Shown: positions 1 through 30,712 of the stretch, piece by piece
How positions within the stretch are numbered: position 1 is the stretch's first letter
Layout of the letters: the number at the start of each line of letters is the position of its first letter
Source of the DNA: an uncultured Candidatus Saccharibacteria bacterium
GTDB taxonomy: Bacteria; Patescibacteriota; Saccharimonadia; CAILAD01; JADZBC01
Assembly (NCBI GenBank): GCA_964600985.1
Contig: CAZRJR010000003.1
Location: 2,583 to 66,582, forward strand
Reading direction: 5' to 3'
DNA length: 64,000 nt
Program-made: the position numbers and the translations under genes
Notes under the pieces: generated by a model
Seen by the model: only the letters and a program-made list of their open reading frames with translations
Told to the model about the DNA's origin: nothing
The model's database searches: none

Positions 1-2231
1 AGAACATCCATACCCACTACAGTATCTCCTGTGCGCAGGCGAATACCGCGTACACCTCGAGTGGCTCGACCCATTGGCCGCGCGTCGCTTTCTTTAAAAC
101 GGATTGCCTGCGCCATGGCAGTCGAGATAATGATGTCATCGCTACCGTGCGTCTTCTTAACCCACTTGAGCTCGTCGCCCTTATCTAGCTTAATAGCAAT
201 GAGTCCGCTCGATCGCACATTCAAGTACTCCGTAATCGCCGTCTTTTTGATCACACCATTCTTAGTAGCCATAAATAAGAACTTAGCGGAGTTGTTCTTC
301 TCGAGTGTAAGGAGTGAAGTGACCCGCTCATCAGGACTTAAGTTTAGTAAGTTTACGATCGCTTGGCCCTTGGCAGTTCGTGATGCAGCCGGCACTTCGT
401 ATGCCTTAAGTTTAAAGGCCCGACCTAGCGAGGTAAAGAACAGAATTGTGTCGTGATTATTGGTCTGAGCCATGTGTTCCACTACGTCTTCTTCCTTGGT
501 GGCCATGCCGATCTTGCCTTTACCACCCCGTGCCTGTGCGGTGTAGGTATTAGAAGGCATGCGCTTAATGTAGTTGCCAGCCGTGAGCGTAATGATTACC
601 TCTTCGTTTGGTATTAAGTCTTCGTCGGAGAATTTACCAATGTTCGACTTTACTATTTGGGTGCGGCGCTTGTCAGCATGCTTGTCTCTTAACTCCACCA
701 GCTCGTCACGAATTACTTTGAGAATGTTTGCTTCGTCGGAAAGAATCGTTTCGAGTTCTTTTATAAGGTTCATGAGCGCTGTGTATTCGTCCTCTATCCT
801 CTTGCGCTCTAGTCCCGCAAGTGTGCGGAGCTGCATGTCCAAAATTGCTTTAGCTTGAATCTCGGTCAACTTAAAGCTCTTAATCAAGTTGGTCATAGCC
901 TCTTCTTTGGTGCTGCTGGCGCGAATGGTAGAGATCACTTTGTCGATCTGATCAAGAGCAATGCGCAGGCCTTCGAGTATATGCGCTCTAGCTTGAGCCT
1001 TCTTGAGCTCGAACTCAGTACGCCTGCGCACCACAACTTTGCGGTGATCTAAGTAGTGACGCAGTACCATTTCTAAGTTCAGTACGCGTGGCTGAATGCC
1101 GTTTACTAACGCGAGCATATTAACGTGGAAGGTAGTCTGAAGTGGGGTTAAGCGGAAAAGCTGGTTAAGCAGCTTCTGAGCATAGGCGTCTTTTTTGAGC
1201 TCAATAATAATGCGTACTCCCACACGATCGGAAGATTCGTCGCGCACATCGGACAGTCCGGTAATTTTCTTCTCGTGGTACAAGTCGGCGATTTTTTGCA
1301 CAAGTACAGACTTATTTACTTGGAAGGGAATAGAAGTAACTACAATACGCTGTTTACCCTTCTTATCTTCTTCTATCTCCGCGTCAGCTCGCATCACAAT
1401 GCTACCTTTGCCCGTGCCATAAGCTTGGGCAATTCCGCCATCGTCAAAAATGATACCACCGCCAGGGAAATCGGGGCCTTTTACAATGTTGATCAAATCA
1501 GCCACAGTGGCTTCTGGGTTGTCGATGATGTAGATTACTGCGTCGACAATCTCGGCCAGATTATGCGGGGGAATATTGGTGGCCATACCGACCGCAATAC
1601 CCTGTACGCCATTTAGGAGTAAATTAGGTAGCTTAGCTGGCAACACCGAAGGCTCGCGCTTATTGCCATCATAGTTTGGCCTAAAATCTACGGTGTCTTT
1701 ATCGATATCAACCAAGAGTTCTTCGGTGAGCTTTTGCATACGGGCTTCGGTATAACGCATAGCTGCCGGTGCATCGCCGTCGATCGATCCAAAGTTACCC
1801 TGACCATCCACCAACATGTAGCGCATCGAAAAATCCTGAGCCATACGGGCCATTGCGTCGTAGATAGCCGTGTCGCCGTGCGGATGATAGCTACCCATTA
1901 CATCACCAACTACCGTGGCGCTCTTACGGAATTTAGAGCCGTGGCGCAGGCCAAGGTTGTTCATAACGTAGAGAATACGGCGGTGCACCGGCTTAAGGCC
2001 ATCACGTACATCCGGCAGTGCGCGCGACACAATAACACTCATGGAGTAGTCTAAGTAACTCTTCTCCATTTCGGTCTCGATAGTACGGAATTCAACTTGG
2101 CCAATACCACTGTCCATCATGGCTTGATTCGCCTGCTCTTCTGGAGTCAATTTCATCTCCTCACTCTTGGATTCTTCCCTCTTTGGTTCTTCCTTGGGGG
2201 TCTTTGCTGATTTGTCGGTTGATTCTGCCAT
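1..2231 (-). CDS. gyrA: DNA gyrase subunit A (partial; C-terminal part runs off the window start)
   Basis: Minus-strand translation from ATG at 2231 (rc of cat 2229-2231) gives [10 protein letters not shown]...[26 protein letters not shown]..., typical GyrA including the QRxxGRGG-like C-terminal repeats. No stop before position 1. Not in the ORF track because it is open-ended. Confidence 0.9.
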
Positions 2232-4442: not shown

Positions 4443-6956
4443 CTAGCGATTCACCACGGGAGTACCAGGCTTGGCTTGAGGCGTAGATGGCACCACGCTC
4501 AAACTCTGCGTTATTTCGGCAGCTACATCGGCCTTAGCGCGAGCGAAGTTTTGACGTGACAACTGCACCATTTGACCATATAGTGTAGGGTCGCTCTCGC
4601 CGATGGGCGGGAAGATTTCCTTAAGTGAAAAGGGCGGCGTAACTGCACCCCTACTAATCAAACGGGCAGCTGCATAGAGATTTGGCGTGTTAATAATGTC
4701 GTCCTTATCGAAAGCCGGCGCAAACTGCTTTGCCATAAACTCAGCGTCCTCTGGCCCTACCCTGAACCCAATCATATTACCGACGTTTCCAAACACCGCG
4801 TCGCGCACCGGTTCCTCAAGCTGTGAAATAAACTGATTCGCCATAATCATAGTCAGGCGGTACTTGCGGGCTTCAGACAAAATGGTAGCGATCGAATCGG
4901 TAGCGTAGTTCTGGAATTCATCGATATAGAGGCTAAAGTCCTGGCGTTGACCTTCGGGTGTGTCGGCCCGACTCATAGCTGCCATTTGGAATTTAATGAT
5001 AAAGATAATACCTAGCAATTTAGAGTTCTGATCACCCAGCAAACCCTTGGATAGGTTTACAAATAAGAGCTTTTTGCCATCCATAATATCCCGAAGGTTA
5101 AAGGAAGACTTTTTCTGACCAATGATGTTGCGCATAATCTCGTTGTTTGCAAAGTCGCCAAATTTAGAGGTGAAGTAGCCCAACATCTCGCTCTTAGAGT
5201 GTTCGCTGGTCTGAGCCATTTGCCCAGTCCAAAATTCTTGTACCACCGGATCACTTACATAGCGGAACTTTTGCTTTAAGAAATCATCGTTAGTAAAGAG
5301 CTTGGGTACCTCAATAAGTGTACCGCCAGCCGGGTCCGACATTACGGTGAGTGCGGCATTGCGAAACCAGTCTACAAACATTGGCCCAACTATTCCCTGG
5401 CCCTTAGGGTCGTAGAGTTTGTAGAACATGCTAATTGCTTCTTGGATTAAAAAGTCTTTTTGTTCTGGGTGAGCCGGATCAAATTCCATAATATTAAAGC
5501 CCAGGGGGTACTCGGTGTCACCAGGGTTAAAATAAATCACATCTTGCATGCGGTGTGGCGGCACCTTGGCCATAAGCTTCTCGGCAGTGTCACCATGTGG
5601 GTCGAGAAAACAAAGTCCCTTACCCATGTGCATGTCTTGCACTATGCAGTTCTCTAAGAAAACTGATTTACCCGTACCAGTTTGACCGATTATATATACA
5701 TGTCGACGACGATCGTCGTCGAGCAGGCGTACTACTGTTTCCTGGCCACGATACAAGTTGCTTCCCAATATAAGTCCTTCTGTAGGCATATCGGCCGGTG
5801 CTGGCACCTCACGCATACCCTTGCGAATCACTTGAGTAGACGATTCCATGCCTTCGCTCGGAAAGTGAAATATACTCGCCAGCTCAACGGAATTAAGGAC
5901 CGTTGAGGTTTGCGAAGCAGGGAAGAACCGAAAGATAAAGTCGGTTGTAAGCTTCTCTGGCGCTGCAGTAGGCTTGAATTTAAACTCATTAGAATTAGGC
6001 AGCGCTAACTGTGCAAATCCAGTTAGTATGTCCTGCACAATTGCCTTAGATCGATTCTGGTCAGTCGAGCTTGCAAGCACACGAATCATCACCTCGAATG
6101 CTGGCGCTGCGTACTTTTCCTCCACAAGCTGACTCATTTTTTGGTTAATTGCATCCGGTTGATTGTCTTGCTTGAGTGTACCCTCCTGAATTTTCTTGGA
6201 ATAACCCGGCTGCTTAATCGGCGCCATAGCAATGTCTTTAATGAGCTTTTTACCAGTATACTTTTCCTTGGCAATCTTTTCGGGATCAAGCAGGTCCTTG
6301 GCTTTCTTCTTAGCATTCTTGGCCCATTTAGCATGAGCTGGACGCACCAGGATCTGAATGCCGGCGCCTTCACCAGCCTGTAAGTGAGAAAGACTGCTTA
6401 GTATACCACTCAGTGGATCGGAGTCACGAGTTTTATAACTAGCAATCGGGAAGTAAGAATCATTCGCAAGGGCAAGCTCACCCCCCGACACACCTGCAAG
6501 CTTACTGGTTTCAGAAAAAATATTTGGGTCATCCACCTGCTCTATCTGAATTGTTGGATAGCCAGAAACCAAGGCCTTTTGTACAGTCGAAAGCAAGGTT
6601 ACGGGTACCGCCGCATAAAAGTAAATCATGGCGCCGTCGGCAATGATCTCGAAACTTAAGTAGCGATTACCATATATATGCGATTTATCAGCAGTGATGC
6701 CCGACAAGAGATTAAAGACTCCCTCGGCCTTTGATATGTTCTCCTTGAACAACTCCCGGGTATCGCGATTGCCTGCTTCACTCGCTTCGGCAGGCGGCAG
6801 TTTAATCTGTAGTGGCACAAGCTTAAGGCTGCGTTCTATGTCTTTGTTGCGCCGGGCTAGATTGCGGTACAGAATAAACAGCACCAAGCCTAGGGCAGAA
6901 AAAAAGGCCAGCCCCAAGGCCGTGCTGAGTAAAATAAAGGCTTGATTAGATTCCAA
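4443..6956 (-). CDS. membrane-anchored FtsK/HerA-superfamily P-loop ATPase (VirB4/VirD4/TraG/DUF87-like, T4SS-type)
   Basis: 837 aa. N-terminal TM helix. Walker A YIIGQTGTGKSVF followed by FLDPHGD (D-x-hGEY-like motif of HerA/VirB4). Walker B LYIDEFQNY then SEARKYRLTMIMANQ. No other T4SS components visible nearby. Confidence 0.5.
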   Translation of the reverse strand: MESNQAFILLSTALGLAFFSALGLVLFILYRNLARRNKDIERSLKLVPLQIKLPPAEASEAGNRDTRELFKENISKAEGVFNLLSGITADKSHIYGNRYLSFEIIADGAMIYFYAAVPVTLLSTVQKALVSGYPTIQIEQVDDPNIFSETSKLAGVSGGELALANDSYFPIASYKTRDSDPLSGILSSLSHLQAGEGAGIQILVRPAHAKWAKNAKKKAKDLLDPEKIAKEKYTGKKLIKDIAMAPIKQPGYSKKIQEGTLKQDNQPDAINQKMSQLVEEKYAAPAFEVMIRVLASSTDQNRSKAIVQDILTGFAQLALPNSNEFKFKPTAAPEKLTTDFIFRFFPASQTSTVLNSVELASIFHFPSEGMESSTQVIRKGMREVPAPADMPTEGLILGSNLYRGQETVVRLLDDDRRRHVYIIGQTGTGKSVFLENCIVQDMHMGKGLCFLDPHGDTAEKLMAKVPPHRMQDVIYFNPGDTEYPLGFNIMEFDPAHPEQKDFLIQEAISMFYKLYDPKGQGIVGPMFVDWFRNAALTVMSDPAGGTLIEVPKLFTNDDFLKQKFRYVSDPVVQEFWTGQMAQTSEHSKSEMLGYFTSKFGDFANNEIMRNIIGQKKSSFNLRDIMDGKKLLFVNLSKGLLGDQNSKLLGIIFIIKFQMAAMSRADTPEGQRQDFSLYIDEFQNYATDSIATILSEARKYRLTMIMANQFISQLEEPVRDAVFGNVGNMIGFRVGPEDAEFMAKQFAPAFDKDDIINTPNLYAAARLISRGAVTPPFSLKEIFPPIGESDPTLYGQMVQLSRQNFARAKADVAAEITQSLSVVPSTPQAKPGTPVVNR

Positions 6957-26768: not shown

Positions 26769-28013
26769 CTAAGGGGTCGAGACTTCGAGTTTGCTAGGCT
26801 TTGGAGCCGGCCCAGCCTTTGGCGATTCAGTTTCGGTTGTAGGAATAAGAGACTGGAACTTCCATATAAATTCGGTGCCCGTCTTAGGGTGCCCGATCTC
26901 TACCGTAGCGCCCAATAAACCAGTCGCCAAGCTGGTAAGGTACAAGCCAAGGCCGGCACCCTCGTAGTTAAAGCGCAAGGCATCTTCACCACGCGAGAAC
27001 GGCTTAAATAGCTGACTGCGACGCTCAAGGCTTATGCCTGGCCCATTATCCTGCACACGAAGCTCAAAGCCCCTATGCAGCGCACGCAGCGTCACGAGGA
27101 CTCGCCCACCGCTCTTGGTGGCAGCCGAGAATTTAATAGCATTATCAAGCACCGGGGTAATGGCCTGCTTAAGCAGGAGTGGGTCGAGCTCGTATACCAG
27201 TTGCTCAGGGGAAAGCAATCGCACGTCCACATGCGCTTCGCTAGCCTGCTTTTTGTAGCTCGCAATCACTTCTTTGAGAAGCTTTGGCACATCTACCGAT
27301 TCGGTATTGAGCACATAGTCTGCCCCCCGATTCGTAAGTGTCGAGATCAAGCTCATACGATCGAGCAAACTCAGGAGTTTTTGGGCCGCCTCGTCGACCG
27401 CAGCATCGCTCCCCTGAGGAATCACCGAGGTAATGGCGAACAAATGCCCTTGCAGCTCGTCGGTGGCGGCGCGAAAGAACTCAGCCCTAGCATGCTCGAG
27501 CTGCATTTCCTCGCGGATAGCAAAGCTCGATTGCTTAGCAATGCGCCTACGCAGCTGGAAGTTGCGCAGATTACTCACCAACACCTGCAGTACAAGCAGC
27601 AACGCCACCACGATAGTTAGTATGTATAATGCGTCGGCGTTCAGGAGCCCAGCTAAGCTAAACAGCCAGATCGCCAGAATAATCACGGCAGTAAGCAAAA
27701 ACGCCGGAATCAAAAAAGCTGCGCTAAATAATGGATTCTTAGCCTCGGGAATGTAGTAGTTCTTTTTATTGCCCCTATCTACCGCATTGATCTTAGCTGA
27801 TAATCCGCCAATTATCTTAGCCATAGCCTCTATGTGGCCTTTGAGTTCCTGCGTTTGCTTGGGCGTAGCCGCGCTATAGCCGCTCACAGCATCCGAAGTG
27901 GTAGCGAGCGACTTTTCGAGCTGGCTCACGGCTTGATCGCCGTGCGTACCTATCAGGGGTCTAGGCCTGCTAGCCTGCGAGCTTGGTGGTGTGTTGGTAG
28001 GAGGTGGCTTCAT
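26769..28013 (-). CDS. sensor histidine kinase (orphan; no response regulator adjacent)
   Basis: 414 aa. Two TM helices, H-box region TDELQGHLFAITSV, HATPase_c (NAIKFS..., GAGLGLYLTSLATGLLGATV). Confidence 0.8.
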   Translation of the reverse strand: MKPPPTNTPPSSQASRPRPLIGTHGDQAVSQLEKSLATTSDAVSGYSAATPKQTQELKGHIEAMAKIIGGLSAKINAVDRGNKKNYYIPEAKNPLFSAAFLIPAFLLTAVIILAIWLFSLAGLLNADALYILTIVVALLLVLQVLVSNLRNFQLRRRIAKQSSFAIREEMQLEHARAEFFRAATDELQGHLFAITSVIPQGSDAAVDEAAQKLLSLLDRMSLISTLTNRGADYVLNTESVDVPKLLKEVIASYKKQASEAHVDVRLLSPEQLVYELDPLLLKQAITPVLDNAIKFSAATKSGGRVLVTLRALHRGFELRVQDNGPGISLERRSQLFKPFSRGEDALRFNYEGAGLGLYLTSLATGLLGATVEIGHPKTGTEFIWKFQSLIPTTETESPKAGPAPKPSKLEVSTP

Positions 28014-28218
28014 CTCATTACTCTTATGCCCTAGTATACGCTAGGTAGGTTACGTCGGCAATTTTACAAGGTCGTTAATATTTGATATTAGTTACTCACT
28101 ATTAGAGACACTTAGCTGAGATTGGTAACTTCAGGATTAGCACATTACCACCTAAACTCATAATCTACGGATTATGAACTTGGGTAGGGCCAGTTTTAAG
28201 GATCTGGCAACCTCGAAC

Positions 28219-28530
28219 TCAGTCGGATGAGCGCCTGGTGGGCTGGACCTCCTCGGCGACCCCGTCGGGTCCAGTGAAGACCATGTCACGAAGGCGGGGG
28301 TGGAATGTGAAGTCCTCGGCCTCCAGGAACTCTTCGAGGAGCTCACGGGACATGCCGCGAACGACCATCTTTTCCGTTCCACCGTACATCATGACGAAGG
28401 TCACTTGCATGAACTCAGGTGGGCGGAAGTTGATCTCCAGCTTCCATGGGTAGTTCTCGTCATCAGGCCCGTCGAACTGCCCCGTAAGGCTGATGAGCTT
28501 GATACCTTCGATTGACGGGTATTCGGGCAT
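28219..28530 (-). CDS. hypothetical 104-aa protein (MPEYPSIEG...), GC-rich foreign-looking module A
   Basis: In-frame ATG at 28530 preceded by GAAAGGGG RBS. The ORF track starts 21 codons earlier at 28593, which lacks an RBS. Composition is markedly GC-richer than the genome background. Confidence 0.4.
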   Translation of the reverse strand: MPEYPSIEGIKLISLTGQFDGPDDENYPWKLEINFRPPEFMQVTFVMMYGGTEKMVVRGMSRELLEEFLEAEDFTFHPRLRDMVFTGPDGVAEEVQPTRRSSD

Positions 28531-28541
28531 GAGAACCCCTT

Positions 28542-28673
28542 TCAGTCTTGAGGCGTAGTGGACTGGCTCTGCTGCTCCACGGAGGGCTTCCACGCTTCGT
28601 GGATCTCGCTGACGAGCATGATGATGGTACTAAGTGCACCGAGGGTACGCCCCACCTTCTTGAGGGTGTTCAT
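28542..28673 (-). CDS. 43-aa hydrophobic small ORF translationally coupled to the downstream 104-aa ORF
   Basis: MNTLKKVGRTLGALSTIIMLVSEIHEAWKPSVEQQSQSTTPQD. GGAGAG RBS 6 nt upstream. Its TGA stop overlaps the RBS of the next gene. Below the ORF-track length cut-off. Confidence 0.25.
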   Translation of the reverse strand: MNTLKKVGRTLGALSTIIMLVSEIHEAWKPSVEQQSQSTTPQD

Positions 28674-28737
28674 GGTGACTCTCCAATTCAGAATTTCAAG
28701 ACGGGTTATCCGTCATTCCCGCTCTGAGAACTATAAG

Positions 28738-28766
28738 ATACTAACATAAATATCATAATAAGTCAA
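28738..28766 (-). promoter_or_regulatory. sigma70-like promoter of module A (inside the ssrA-tail repeat copy)
   Basis: Minus strand: TTGACT (28766..28761), 17-nt spacer, TAGTAT (28743..28738). Confidence 0.35.
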
Positions 28767-28775
28767 TGGTGGAGC
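28758..28775. repeat. direct repeat copy A of the ssrA 3' tail + flank (ATAAGTCAATGGTGGAGC)
   Basis: 18/18 identical to 29464..29481. Similarity (~75%) continues ~25 nt further on the promoter side. Confidence 0.8.
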
Positions 28776-28907
28776 GGGTACGAAAAAAGTGGCATGAACT
28801 GGTGGTTGAATCAGGTCGATGGAGGGAAATATTAGCTGTTCCCTATTCCAGGCACTTATCTGGAATGAGTAACGGCAGGGATTAAGACTAATGAAAGAGG
28901 CCCCAGA

Positions 28908-28940
28908 GGGGTCCCCCTGTTTCGATGTACAGGGGGACCC
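28908..28940 (-). terminator. GC-rich hairpin right after the stop of the tautomerase-like gene
   Basis: GGGTCCCCCTG / CAGGGGGACCC 11-bp perfect stem, 10-nt loop, followed on the minus strand by a CU-rich tract. Confidence 0.35.
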
Positions 28941-28958
28941 ATGGGAGCCGTGAGGAGA

Positions 28959-29375
28959 TCACCAGTCGAGCTTCTCGCCACCGATGCTGAGGAACCCGTG
29001 AGACGGGCTCCAGCGAACATCGCAGGCGTAGTCCAGGTCGTGCGGGTAGCCGAACTCGGCAAACTGCTGGATGAGCAGCCCCTTCACAACGCCAGTCGCC
29101 TCGAGCTGCATCTCGTCGGTGAGGTCACCCTCGCTGAACTCGATGAGGATCCAGATGGCGGGGGTGTTGACGTCTGCTTCGCCGAACTTCTCGATGGTCA
29201 CCTGCACACCCTTCTCAGGTGTGCCGTGGTCCATGTACAGCTTCGCCTCGTTCTTGACGAAGATGGCGGGGAGGCTCGCGGCGAACTTCGCTGTCTTCTT
29301 CTGGTGAGGGGTGTAGATGCTCGAGCCTCCCTCAGGGAAGTAGGCGGAGCTGGTAGTGATCTTGATGAGGGGCAT
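28959..29375 (-). CDS. tautomerase-superfamily-like protein (tandem 4-oxalocrotonate-tautomerase-like halves), GC-rich module B
   Basis: 138 aa starting MPLIKIT (Pro right after Met). Second half PAIWILIEFSEGDLTDEMQ...HGFLSIGGEKL resembles 4-OT (PIAQIHILEGRSDEQK...HFGIGGEL). AAGGAG RBS 6 nt upstream. Confidence 0.4.
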   Translation of the reverse strand: MPLIKITTSSAYFPEGGSSIYTPHQKKTAKFAASLPAIFVKNEAKLYMDHGTPEKGVQVTIEKFGEADVNTPAIWILIEFSEGDLTDEMQLEATGVVKGLLIQQFAEFGYPHDLDYACDVRWSPSHGFLSIGGEKLDW

Positions 29376-29443
29376 ATGCCGCTCCTTGTGAGGAACATAG
29401 GGGGACTGCCCTATCAGATCGCTCAGATCGAGTGATGAAAAGC

Positions 29444-29472
29444 ATTATAGCATAATATTCATTATAAGTCAA
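29444..29472 (-). promoter_or_regulatory. sigma70-like promoter of module B, abutting the ssrA 3' end
   Basis: Minus strand: TTGACT (29472..29467, directly after the tmRNA CCA), 17-nt spacer, TATAAT (29449..29444). Confidence 0.4.
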
Positions 29473-29481
29473 TGGTGGAGC
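29464..29481. repeat. direct repeat copy B = last 9 nt of ssrA + 9 nt of 3' flank
   Basis: Identical to 28758..28775. Contains GCTCCACCA, the ssrA 3' terminus. Confidence 0.8.
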
Positions 29482-29861
29482 TGCAGGGAATCGCACCCTG
29501 GTCCGCCGGTCCGTCTATATAACCTACTACAAGCTTAGCTTACTTAGCGATTGTTTAAGGAGGTGCGCGCACTCACAGTAAGCAAAATGTACTCGCTACT
29601 CCTCTATTCTGCATCTTAGTGATTGCCGGATAGAACAGCAACCAAGCAACCAGATGGTGTGACGCCCTGCAATCTATCTGGTATCGATCACAATGAGCGG
29701 CGAACGCGTATTAGGCGTAAGCTGGCGCAAAGGTTGGCATGCTAAAAGCAGCTTTTACTTTGCTAACGAGTGTATTTGCACTTGTTGAGTTTGATCTGTA
29801 ACGTCGATCAGGCGGCTTGCAGTTATATGTCAAGAATCCAACGTCGAAGCTGATCAGCCCC
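29473..29861 (-). ncRNA. ssrA: tmRNA (transfer-messenger RNA)
   Basis: Minus strand reads 5' GGGGCUGAUCAGCUUCGACG...3' GGACCAGGGUGCGAUUCCCUGCAGCUCCACCA. Acceptor GGGGCUG/CAGCUCC has the G3:U70 Ala identity pair, T-arm CAGGG-UGCGAUU-CCCUG, encoded CCA. Internal tag frame GCA AAU ACA CUC GUU AGC AAA GUA AAA GCU GCU UUU AGC AUG CCA ACC UUU GCG CCA GCU UAC GCC UAA (...FAPAYA-stop); resume codon not determined. smpB is 5 kb away. Confidence 0.85.
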
Positions 29862-29878: not shown

Positions 29879-30712
29879 TCATTTTAGGCCGTTAATCCAG
29901 TCTAACACCATAGTGGCGGCGCGCTGTGGATCCTCTAGGGGAAACAGATGCCCGGCATCTGAGGCAACTTGGTATGTTATAGAATTATTTACAACGCAAT
30001 TGATGTACTTTTTAATATTCGCTAGGCGGTCGCTGGCTCCATCGATCGCCAGCAGAGGCACTTGGATCTGCTCCAATACAGGTGCAAACCGAAACTTCTT
30101 GAGGTCGTCAATTACCTGTTGGCCCGCCAGAATGTCCGCCTTGAGCCGCGAGTCATAGCCTGCATCATAAAGCTGTTGGCGCAAAGCCTGGTCACGAGTA
30201 TGCATCACCATCGCTCCACTCCAGTCAGCAAGCCGTCGGTTCTGAAACATGCGCGTGCGCAGTCTCAGGGGTAAGCGCTTGCCGATTTCGAAGCTAACCT
30301 GATAAAACAGCGTGGTAAGGTTAACGGTATACTGCGGGTATGGGTTCAGAACGACTAAACGAGCAACTCGCCTGCTTACAGCGACAGTCTTTAAAGCCAC
30401 TACGCCGCCATAGGAGTGTCCTATAAGTATTACGTCCTTAAGCTCAAGTTTGGCCATAAATGCGTCTACAAGAGCTGCAAACGCGTCCACACCGTGGTGG
30501 TTGTACTGAGGTCCGTATAAGGGTTCCGAGTCACCTTCCCCTGGTAAATCCAGTGCAACAATTCTCCCCTCACCTAGGCTATCCGCAAATGGCCCGAGCG
30601 CCTTAGCTTCGCCAAACATGCCATGAATAAGCACATAGGTGGGGCCAGTGCCAAGAACTTGCTCTAAGTAGTGAATCTTACAGCCTTCGACAGATACAAA
30701 CTTGCTTTCCAT
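29879..30712 (-). CDS. alpha/beta-fold hydrolase
   Basis: 277 aa. HGMFGE oxyanion region, nucleophile elbow GHSYGG, C-terminal His. Confidence 0.8.
   Translation of the reverse strand: MESKFVSVEGCKIHYLEQVLGTGPTYVLIHGMFGEAKALGPFADSLGEGRIVALDLPGEGDSEPLYGPQYNHHGVDAFAALVDAFMAKLELKDVILIGHSYGGVVALKTVAVSRRVARLVVLNPYPQYTVNLTTLFYQVSFEIGKRLPLRLRTRMFQNRRLADWSGAMVMHTRDQALRQQLYDAGYDSRLKADILAGQQVIDDLKKFRFAPVLEQIQVPLLAIDGASDRLANIKKYINCVVNNSITYQVASDAGHLFPLEDPQRAATMVLDWINGLK

Follow-up and report, generated by a model that had tools for sequence, protein, structure and literature searches.

Two integrase-less mini-cassettes at the 3' end of the tmRNA gene in a Saccharibacteria genome and their probable link to a large serine recombinase

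Introduction

How do two GC-rich gene units of only ~0.7 kb come to lie directly behind ssrA, the gene for transfer-messenger RNA (tmRNA), in a stretch of DNA in which no recombinase gene is found? The question is raised by 64,000 nucleotides from an uncultured Candidatus Saccharibacteria bacterium (GCA_964600985.1, contig CAZRJR010000003.1, positions 2,583 to 66,582), hereafter referred to as the window. Here, we report that two ~0.7-kb cassettes, A and B, are inserted in tandem exactly after the last base of ssrA, and we trace their conserved ends to a large serine recombinase (LSR) that is encoded at the same site in a relative. We consider it probable that the cassettes form a tandem array of miniature elements without an integrase of their own, accreted site-specifically at ssrA and belonging to a family whose integrase is an LSR. 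As such, the array is an unusually small form of a known kind of element in a new phylum and involves no new mechanism.

Results

Two cassettes are inserted flush with the end of ssrA

The ssrA gene of the window, which is conserved in an alignment with eight relatives, has a 3' end that reads ...GCUCCACCA in the match to Rfam RF00023, and ARAGORN and Rfam agree on the end that an earlier note on the window had given (features of the window are listed in Table 1). The last 9 nt of the gene, GCTCCACCA at 29473-29481, are the recombination core on the side of the left attachment site, attL. The 18-mer ATAAGTCAATGGTGGAGC, in which this core continues into the cassette, was recounted and has exactly the two copies claimed in that note; no third match with up to three mismatches exists, with 0.04 matches expected by chance, and a longer version of the direct repeat covers 34 nt with 85% identity. 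Read on the minus strand, each copy gives GCTCCACCA and then TTGACT-17 nt-TA(T/G)(A/T)AT, i.e. a promoter follows directly after the CCA in each case, as had been noted. The extended promoter motif TTGACT-N14-16-TGNTANNAT is found only in these two places in the 64 kb. Cassette B also has an AAGGAG ribosome-binding site at 29382-29387. An assembly chimera, against which the earlier note had cautioned, was ruled out, because the sequences of the independent Logan assemblies L003 and L004 are contained in that of the window, letter for letter, over the entire region.

Cassette B has intact cores at both ends (29473-29481 and 28767-28775), whereas cassette A has lost its distal core. The newest unit therefore lies nearest ssrA, because the end element and tail of B are intact and the end of A is degenerate; cassette A is older than B. 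The distal end of cassette A abuts native sequence upstream of the histidine kinase gene, which is common to the relative L046. The array had been thought to end at 28150; it reaches ~28041, with a degenerate end element at 28041-28144, and the presumed weak inverted third copy of the repeat at 28148-28166 turned out to be the left arm of the hairpin that follows ORF104. GTATACTAGGGCA was considered as a decayed tail of cassette A and rejected, as the comparison with L046 identifies it as native sequence upstream of the histidine kinase gene.

The open reading frames (ORFs) ORF138, ORF43 and ORF104 and the 12-bp GC-rich hairpin are present as originally described, and the GC enrichment, previously estimated by eye, holds on quantification. 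ORF138 has 60.7% GC and a GC content at third codon positions (GC3) of 86%; the values are 58.4% and 77% for ORF104, 57.6% and 77% for ORF43, and 48.7±2.1% and 50±3% for the 30 other genes of the window. The whole segment has 54.7% GC, which ranks it among the highest 0.3% of stretches of that length, and the shift is concentrated in the cargo ORFs.

Empty and occupied sites in relatives

Using the glycosyltransferase gene beside ssrA as an anchor, we fetched ssrA loci from lineages that are 84-90% identical in the glycosyltransferase protein. The names given to homologues of this protein also assign the organism to the Saccharibacteria. The variable site is located between the glycosyltransferase-ssrA pair and the genes for an NHL-repeat protein and a histidine kinase, with both sides conserved. 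Two lineages are empty (L046/L047 and L048): here, ssrA is followed by its terminator and ~250 nt, then by the gene for a 2151-aa NHL-repeat protein and by the histidine kinase gene. Thus, the empty site that the earlier note had proposed to look for exists, with the NHL-repeat gene between ssrA and the kinase gene. Occupied lineages have one to six small cassettes. L045/L050 have one, a GC-rich acyltransferase unit; L044/L055 and others have a 668-bp ORF130 cassette in front of the same older material as in L045/L050; L005 (GCA_964519275.1; glycosyltransferase 90% identical) has three small gene units, the third with an 86% ORF138 homologue; and in L051, the ORF138 cassette is followed by ~3.7 kb of further small ORFs, ~4.4 kb in total. 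Finally, L052 has a 5.8-kb island with an LSR gene. Many contigs of relatives break at the site, as expected for a variable region.

In the table of junctions drawn up from these loci, all insertions are flush with the CCA, and every pseudo-tail precedes either the next cassette or the sequence found directly behind ssrA in an unoccupied relative, i.e. the displaced ssrA terminator. Two pairs of occupied and empty sites illustrate this (slashes mark junctions). L045 reads ssrA-CCA/AAAGGGACTTTCGTG... and L055 reads ssrA-CCA/668-bp cassette...CGCTCCACCA/AAAGGGATTTTCGTG...; similarly, L005 reads ssrA-CCA/AGCATAAGTATTATA... and L051 reads ssrA-CCA/707-bp ORF138 cassette...CGCTCCACCA/AGCATAAGCATTATA... 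The distal direct repeat that copies the 3' end of ssrA is also present in L005, L044, L051, L052 and L055. Moreover, three different cargos have a common 30-nt promoter head that starts exactly after the CCA.

Several other observations were made at these loci. The NHL-repeat gene lies at L046:2798-9253 and its start is visible in L045, L048 and L051. In the window, this gene is gone and the kinase upstream motif CGTATACTAG(G/A)GCATAAG is retained (28014-28041); we therefore take it that ~6.4 kb beside the array were deleted in the window lineage. The region L051:3560-7315 contains ORFs of 146, 111, 190, 132 and 137 aa and a CDP-alcohol phosphatidyltransferase gene, with one more partial cassette-end element at 6136-6207; it is the longest array seen. 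On the 5' side of ssrA, the window has a strain-specific alpha/beta hydrolase gene (29879-30712, minus strand), 18 nt upstream of ssrA and on the same strand. In the relatives, the spacer between the glycosyltransferase gene and ssrA is only ~105 nt and lacks this gene, which represents a second insertion and extends into what is annotated as the start region of the glycosyltransferase ORF. Close relatives of the hydrolase were found neither in GTDB genomes nor among 5.8 billion proteins, where the best match is 34% identical.

The cassette end corresponds to the displaced 3' end of a recombinase gene

Each unit ends in a conserved element of ~115 nt that closes with a copy of the ssrA tail (...TAATCCCTGCCGTTACTCA...CGACCTGATTCA...TTTTTTCGTAnnnGCTCCACCA in the alignment behind the L005 units). 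The earlier note had recognised the repeats at the cassette boundaries as att-type scars, which stands, and had missed this element. A profile of the element finds exactly two matches in the 64 kb by nhmmer, one intact (28764-28889, 110 bits) and one degenerate (~28041-28144, 80 bits), and the element is 70-95% conserved between cassettes. Read in the antisense direction, with the core CTCCAC encoding Val-Glu, every well-preserved copy is open over 38 codons, and stops interrupt the other five frames. The peptide is VERVRKKWHELVVESGRWREILAVPYSRHLSGMSNGRD in the window (W1), VERVRFLWHELVTESGRWKEILATPYSRYLAGMSNTRD in L044, VDRVRKNLHDILAESGRWREILATPYSRHLGGVSNVRD in L005 and VELIRKNWHPLLEEVERWRKLLGGAYTAFLNSGRV... 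at the distal end of the L052 island.

In L052, the gene that adjoins ssrA and reads towards it (L052:5519-7120) encodes a 533-aa LSR with the Pfam domains Resolvase and Recombinase. The protein matches the integrase family phrog_95 (1e-49) and, below threshold and over residues 10-435, the serine recombinase XisF; its ORF and ssrA share 50 nt. Copies of GCTCCACCA delimit the island, the distal bound being TTTTTTCGTATAAGCTCCACCA, and the island has the terminal motif TTTTTTCGTAnnnGCTCCACCA in common with the cassettes; its cargo consists of an HTH_3 protein, two unknown ORFs and a KAP-family NTPase. The GC content of the recombinase gene (44%) and the NTPase gene (42%) is ordinary. The recombinase frame crosses the core in the same frame as LVE (...YRLATNKKSHDVAQNAHLVE/), and the distal island end continues that frame; the protein ends ...LVELQGIAPWSASPSI in the integrated form and ...LVELIRKNWHPLLEEVERWRKLLGG... 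in the reconstituted form. The rejoined C-terminus is collinear, without a gap at the junction, with the antisense ORF over the first pseudo-tail of L005 (44% over 63 aa, BLASTP E=2e-15). Moreover, 52-60% of the differences among three diverged copies of the element are at third codon positions (p=0.006-0.03), as are 6/7 changes in the fragment within two recombinase-less cassette lineages. At the level of sequence, these comparisons demonstrate that each cassette closes with the displaced 3'-terminal coding part of an LSR gene. It follows that the attachment site attP lies inside the recombinase ORF and that integration at attP leaves the last ~38-57 recombinase codons behind at the element's far end. 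The earlier note had spoken of the classical scar of integrase-mediated insertion; the enzyme associated with the same site in L052 is a large serine recombinase and not a classical tyrosine integrase.

Two other origins of the element were considered and rejected. An Rfam search at E<=1 gave no tmRNA-like signal at 28767-28890, which speaks against derivation from tmRNA, and as an attC-like or structured-RNA element it would be expected to fold, whereas its DNA fold has a z-score of -1.3 and 22/200 shuffled sequences fold equally well.

An LSR gene that adjoins ssrA with its ORF over attL is present in L052 and is implied for the proteins P0138 and P0139; the window itself has none. P0138 and P0139 are >90% identical to the L052 enzyme (same 90% cluster) and end ...NAHLVE/MPGTAPGSEK and ...NAHLVE/LRGTAPRSKR, respectively. 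Their tails after LVE differ and, when back-translated, resemble T-arms of other tmRNAs in the antisense direction. As these tails appear to be derived from the target, the integrated recombinase gene would always borrow its stop codon from the target. The sequence referred to as terminator B, which follows several tails, represents the preceding segment of the recombinase gene in antisense orientation, so that the island provides ssrA with a new terminator from inside the integrase gene. In L052, ~100 nt past the distal island end (1060-1130, minus strand), a promoter TTGACTAAATAGCAATAGTATGCTATTAT resembles the cassette-head promoter TTGACTTATAATGAATATTATGCTATAAT; cassette heads may be derived from such flanking promoters.

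The conservation of the fragment raises the possibility that the orphan LSR fragments are working parts of a split-gene switch, that the array records and controls recombinase activity, and that the promoter-bearing ~0.7-kb cassettes are an actively trans-mobilised, integron-like form of gene capture at ssrA in ultra-small epibionts. An island that abuts ssrA would then make a recombinase with a junk C-terminus from the ssrA antisense strand, and either excision as a circle or the presence of a cassette between the recombinase gene and ssrA would give the gene back its native C-terminus of ~40-57 residues. The changes at third codon positions in lineages without a recombinase hint at such a switch; still, we put the idea forward tentatively and regard it as doubtful.

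The ORF138 cassette has moved between lineages

Between the window and L051 (7316-8022), the ORF138 cassette has 97.3% nucleotide identity. By comparison, the identity of core loci is far lower, i.e. 85.5% for ssrA, 75.8% for the glycosyltransferase gene and 62-70% for three further core genes. The high identity stops at the pseudo-tail, and the sequences of the window and L051 to its right are unrelated; on the left, universally conserved ssrA borders the cassette over at most ~65 nt, beyond which ssrA is strongly diverged. The cassette opens the array in the window and in L051 and comes third in L005, giving three different contexts. Because of the contrast in identity, the shifting positions and the exact boundaries at the CCA and the pseudo-tail, the ORF138 cassette is, as judged from these alignments, horizontally mobile and has recently moved between diverged lineages as a discrete unit. 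Together with the empty sites, the three contexts and the identity of 97.3% support the tandem accretion of integrase-less, possibly trans-mobilised mini-islands that the earlier note had suggested.

These data bear directly on two other explanations. According to the first, the cassettes are relics only, i.e. the immobile remains of deleted full-size recombinase islands that are shared by vertical descent. Deletion derivatives do exist, as terminator-type cassettes carry antisense remnants of the penultimate coding segment of the recombinase (...YRLAANKKELRESRNSLLV in L005), cassette A is visibly decaying, and genomes of the Candidate Phyla Radiation are under reductive pressure. However, vertical descent is at odds with a cassette that is far more similar between window and L051 than ssrA and the flanking gene are, and that occurs at different array positions with unrelated right flanks. 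Moreover, independent deletions would not yield the 30-nt promoter head common to three cargos. We therefore regard this explanation as unlikely.

According to the second, cassettes are exchanged by natural transformation and homologous recombination, with ssrA as the left arm and the cassette-end element as the right arm, and no site-specific step takes place today. Competence is known in Saccharibacteria, and the conservation of the ~115-nt element between cassettes would offer an arm. In addition, ssrA looks mosaic: in the alignment of the window gene with L051:8023-8411, ~95 nt (columns ~120-215) are identical and the next ~110 nt are strongly diverged, in an otherwise diverged gene, which suggests recombination inside the tmRNA gene between lineages. 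However, the short conserved left arm with its diverged neighbouring stretch and the unrelated right flanks mean that homologous recombination cannot explain the original insertion, and insertions flush with the CCA with a duplicated 9-nt core are the signature of site-specific recombination. Homologous exchange as the whole explanation is thus distinctly improbable, and site-specific accretion remains the preferred reading.

Cargo proteins

The AlphaFold2 (AF2) model of ORF138 has a predicted local distance difference test score (pLDDT) of 84.7 and a beta-alpha-beta fold. In a Foldseek search of the PDB, the top matches are all MIF, cis-CaaD, MSAD or CHMI (E ~1e-4, template modelling score (TM) 0.5-0.56). 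Met1-Pro2 is invariant in an alignment of eight ORF138 homologues, so that the N-terminal Pro of tautomerases is present, whereas no curated tautomerase family is matched in Pfam or NCBIfam at E<=1. The predicted fold supports that ORF138 is a tautomerase-fold protein, in agreement with the tautomerase-like assignment guessed at earlier. The ORF138 family is rare, with eight clusters in 5.8 billion proteins, and had no match in plasmids. ORF104 gave no match in Pfam, NCBIfam, PADLOC or PHROGs and no profile similarity to the ORF138 family, and its single-sequence AF2 model (pLDDT 51) is too poor for use. PADLOC and PHROGs searches of all cassette cargos found nothing.

The three ORF138 homologues whose surroundings were examined (P0002, P0005 and P0007) lie in Saccharibacteria- or Patescibacteria-like contexts; P0005 and P0007 are located on Patescibacteria-like contigs beside tRNA genes, with a GC content adapted to their own contig. 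The high GC3 and these contexts point to a GC-richer donor lineage and not specifically to an actinobacterial host, and the earlier speculation about such a donor finds no support. The more distant homologues (48-51% identity) lie by a tRNA-Gly/Arg/His cluster (L007:2299-2766) and by tRNA-Thr (L008:316-741), and no cassette-end element was detectable near either. It is possible that tRNA-targeting elements are a more general vehicle of the ORF138 family. In P0142, a near-identical 155-aa member of the ORF138 cluster, the Met-Pro start is replaced (…ICSLIKITT…) and an upstream extension is present; it is possibly an inactivated copy without the catalytic proline, as far as its sequence indicates.

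Table 1. Coordinates of the features at the ssrA locus of the window
Feature	Position	Strand	Remarks
tmRNA gene (ssrA), intact	29473..29861	(-)	ARAGORN; Rfam RF00023, 89 bits, full length, model positions 1-374
Direct repeat copy 1	29464..29481 (34-nt version 29448-29481)	(-)	ssrA tail and first 9 nt of cassette B
Direct repeat copy 2	28758..28775 (34-nt version 28742-28775)	(-)	pseudo-tail and first 9 nt of cassette A
Cassette B promoter	29444..29472	(-)	TTGACT-17-TATAAT, 11/12, TG-extended -10, starts 29472
Cassette A promoter	28738..28766	(-)	TTGACT-17-TAGTAT, 9/12, TG-extended -10, starts 28766
Cassette B ('C138'), 706 bp	28767..29472	(-)	repeat spacing 706 nt; first base after CCA to own GCTCCACCA pseudo-tail
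ORF138, cassette B cargo	28959..29375	(-)	tautomerase-superfamily fold (predicted), Pro invariant after Met, GC3 86%
Hairpin after ORF138, perfect 12-bp, GC-rich, presumed terminator	28909..28940	(-)	inverted repeat; conserved in L051 and L005
Cassette-end element of B	28767..28890	(+)	orphan LSR 3' coding fragment (M)VERVRKKWHELVVESGRWREILAVPYSRHLSGMSNGRD and stop; includes pseudo-tail core 28767-28775
Cassette A ('C43/104'), ~0.73 kb	28041..28766	(-)	distal element degenerate, pseudo-tail lost
ORF43, first gene of cassette A	28542..28673	(-)	called as gene in two Logan assemblies
ORF104 (MPEYPS...)	28219..28533	(-)	starts 8 nt after ORF43 stop codon
Hairpin after ORF104	28150..28185 (arms 28150-28165 / 28170-28185)	(-)	inverted repeat
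Degenerate LSR 3' fragment, end of cassette A	28041..28144	(+)	nhmmer 80 bits; alignment; stops in all frames
Histidine kinase, native distal flank of array	26769..28013	(-)	Pfam HATPase_c; 56% identical to L046 kinase downstream of ssrA

Discussion

How would such an array arise? In a complete island, the LSR gene lies next to ssrA and reads towards it with its ORF across the core CTCCAC, so that integration splits the gene. A mini-cassette keeps only a strong outward promoter right after the CCA, one or two cargo genes, a hairpin, and the orphan LSR 3' fragment with the 9-nt copy of the ssrA tail. Insertion was serial, with the newest unit next to ssrA. A cassette would be excised as a circle by recombination between the two tails and integrated by an LSR supplied in trans, in the manner of a cis-mobilizable element (CIME) or a satellite. 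The attP of a cassette would be expected to read …CGTACCCGCTCCACCA/TTGACTTATAATG…; for cassette B, the expected circle junction is CGTACCCGCTCCACCATTGACTTATAATGAATATTATGC and the expected site emptied of it is CCCTGCAGCTCCACCATTGACTTATTATGATATTTATG. As promoter-type cassettes bring no terminator, ssrA transcription would read into the first cassette.

Several findings weigh against this reading. As stated in the earlier note, the window lacks a recombinase: a Pfam scan of 26 ORFs found none in the 64 kb, and a tblastn search of the window with the L052 recombinase matched only the antisense of the ssrA tail. Neither cassette contains an integrase, which is one of the general marks of a genomic island. 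No circular form or intact attP was found, and scans of viral and metagenome sequences gave chance matches only. The pattern TAATCCCTGNCGTNACTCA had three viral and 30 metagenome matches, all of the pattern only and due to chance (in a carbamoyltransferase-like gene and others); in the viral scans, the junction of tail and element had no matches, the ESGRWRE coding stretch had one chance match (L061), and viral contigs searched for related loci with the L052 recombinase as query contained none. When the 39-aa peptide of the fragment was compared with 1.8 billion representative proteins, no full-length recombinase was found; the search returned three repetitive proteins with spurious multi-stretch matches and a 56-aa fragment ORF, P0135. 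Moreover, the three kinds of cassette 5' end, of which one is a promoter type and two are terminator types, show no sequence relationship to one another, and since serine integrases normally recognise both half-sites, a single LSR for all types is not obvious. The target sequence downstream of the CCA varies as well, and only one LSR-bearing island, that of L052, was seen in its genomic context.

A further question is whether promoter-type cassettes are moved by another enzyme, a tyrosine integrase or a host recombinase, with the LSR fragment as a passenger. Their 5' arm has no similarity to that of the LSR island, and integration at tRNA or tmRNA 3' ends with direct repeats is typical of tyrosine integrases (PMC4383910). 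However, no tyrosine recombinase was seen in any array or among the scanned ORFs of the window, and an LSR is the only integrase at the site; in addition, the terminal motif TTTTTTCGTAnnnGCTCCACCA is common to cassettes and LSR island, and the orphan fragment changes mostly at third codon positions. For these reasons, we consider the involvement of another enzyme very improbable. That the array is an integron-like platform with the cassette end as a folded attC-type site is hardly conceivable: the 0.7-kb size, the conserved 3' end, the common insertion point and the newest-proximal order fit, but the element lacks a significant fold and is a coding remnant, the cassettes have their own promoters, and scans of the window ORFs found no IntI-type gene.

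Among known systems, the site-specifically accreted cassettes described here compare most closely with the ssrA-specific genomic islands of Dehalococcoides. Those islands are tandem and bounded by ssrA repeats, and the recombinase gene dsiB always overlaps attL and stops outside the island (PMC3146451). Fifteen islands lack the integration module and were interpreted as cis-mobilisable (McMurdie et al. 2011, PMC3146451), and it was suggested that perhaps only the circle, or a position behind a neighbour with the 3' fragment, gives a complete integrase (PMC3146451). In both systems, the target is the single-copy tmRNA gene with tandem units between repeats of its 3' end, a serine recombinase of ~540 aa (here in L052) is encoded next to ssrA, towards it and over attL, and units without an integration module occur (two in the window, three in L005 and several in L051). 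Apart from the phylum, Saccharibacteria as opposed to Chloroflexi, the systems differ in the insertion point, which in Dehalococcoides is the T-loop with a 20-bp repeat and here the extreme 3' end, flush with the CCA, with the 9-nt core GCTCCACCA. The six-gene module of Dehalococcoides (DsiB, DsiA, RecF-like, ParB, Mom and a large protein) contrasts with an LSR and a small helix-turn-helix protein in L052, and the multi-kb islands contrast with integrase-less, single-operon cassettes of 0.67-0.74 kb with their own promoter. Going beyond the Dehalococcoides work, the displaced 3' fragment is here conserved at the protein level. Relative to DsiB and CcrB, the L052 enzyme is placed by general LSR membership only (Pfam Resolvase and Recombinase).

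The other systems appear, by analogy, to be more distant. CIMEs such as those related to ICESt1 and ICESt3 of Streptococcus keep attL and the right attachment site attR, have lost integration and transfer genes, and are moved by the integrase of a related element (PMC5704250). The cassettes resemble them in their tandem position at the 3' end of a conserved gene, in retaining both att sites (cassette B) and in lacking integration and transfer genes. However, CIMEs are decayed integrative and conjugative or mobilizable elements with tyrosine integrases and conjugation, whereas the site described here has a serine recombinase, no conjugation genes, and much smaller units with a common dedicated promoter head.

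As with the tRNA and tmRNA islands of tyrosine integrases (Islander/TIGER; PMC4383910), the target 3' end is restored, a displaced copy marks the far boundary, and ssrA is a hot spot with tandem arrays. An intact target gene, a distal direct repeat and empty sites in relatives, the general hallmarks of such islands, are all found here; unlike in those islands, the integrase family is another one, only 9 nt of ssrA are duplicated and the window units lack an integrase.

The staphylococcal cassette chromosome SCCmec (CcrAB), an analogy already drawn for ssrA islands in PMC3146451, is likewise a serine-recombinase island; it occupies a conserved single-copy gene's 3' end, and tandem or composite arrays as well as recombinase-less pseudo-SCC elements occur; its target is rlmH/orfX, it needs two recombinases and its elements are tens of kb long. 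Finally, integron cassettes and clusters of attC sites lacking integron integrases (CALINs) are similar in size, in having one or two genes and a conserved 3' end, in accumulating at one site with the newest unit proximal and in arrays without a nearby integrase; unlike these, the cassettes involve no IntI and no folded attC, have their own promoters and are inserted at the end of an RNA gene.

In our search of the literature, no paper was found that describes such an ssrA site in Saccharibacteria. The interest of the site lies in the size and modularity of its units, in the split integrase gene and in the organism. For Dehalococcoides, the idea was put forward that only the circle or a position behind a neighbour gives a complete integrase; with the displaced end conserved at the protein level, this idea can be tested directly. 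Among the tools of genome engineering, serine integrases whose sites are short and well defined are preferred. A native pair of LSR and attB, the chromosomal attachment site, at a conserved single-copy gene would be a landing pad for epibionts that are hard to manipulate, and the minimal cargo unit would consist of promoter, gene, hairpin, ~115-nt end and 9-nt core. For the Saccharibacteria, the site provides a concrete route of gene flow: ssrA is a hot spot, a serine integrase is available as a candidate, and minimal mobile units of ~0.7 kb have recently passed between lineages whose core genes are ~25% diverged.

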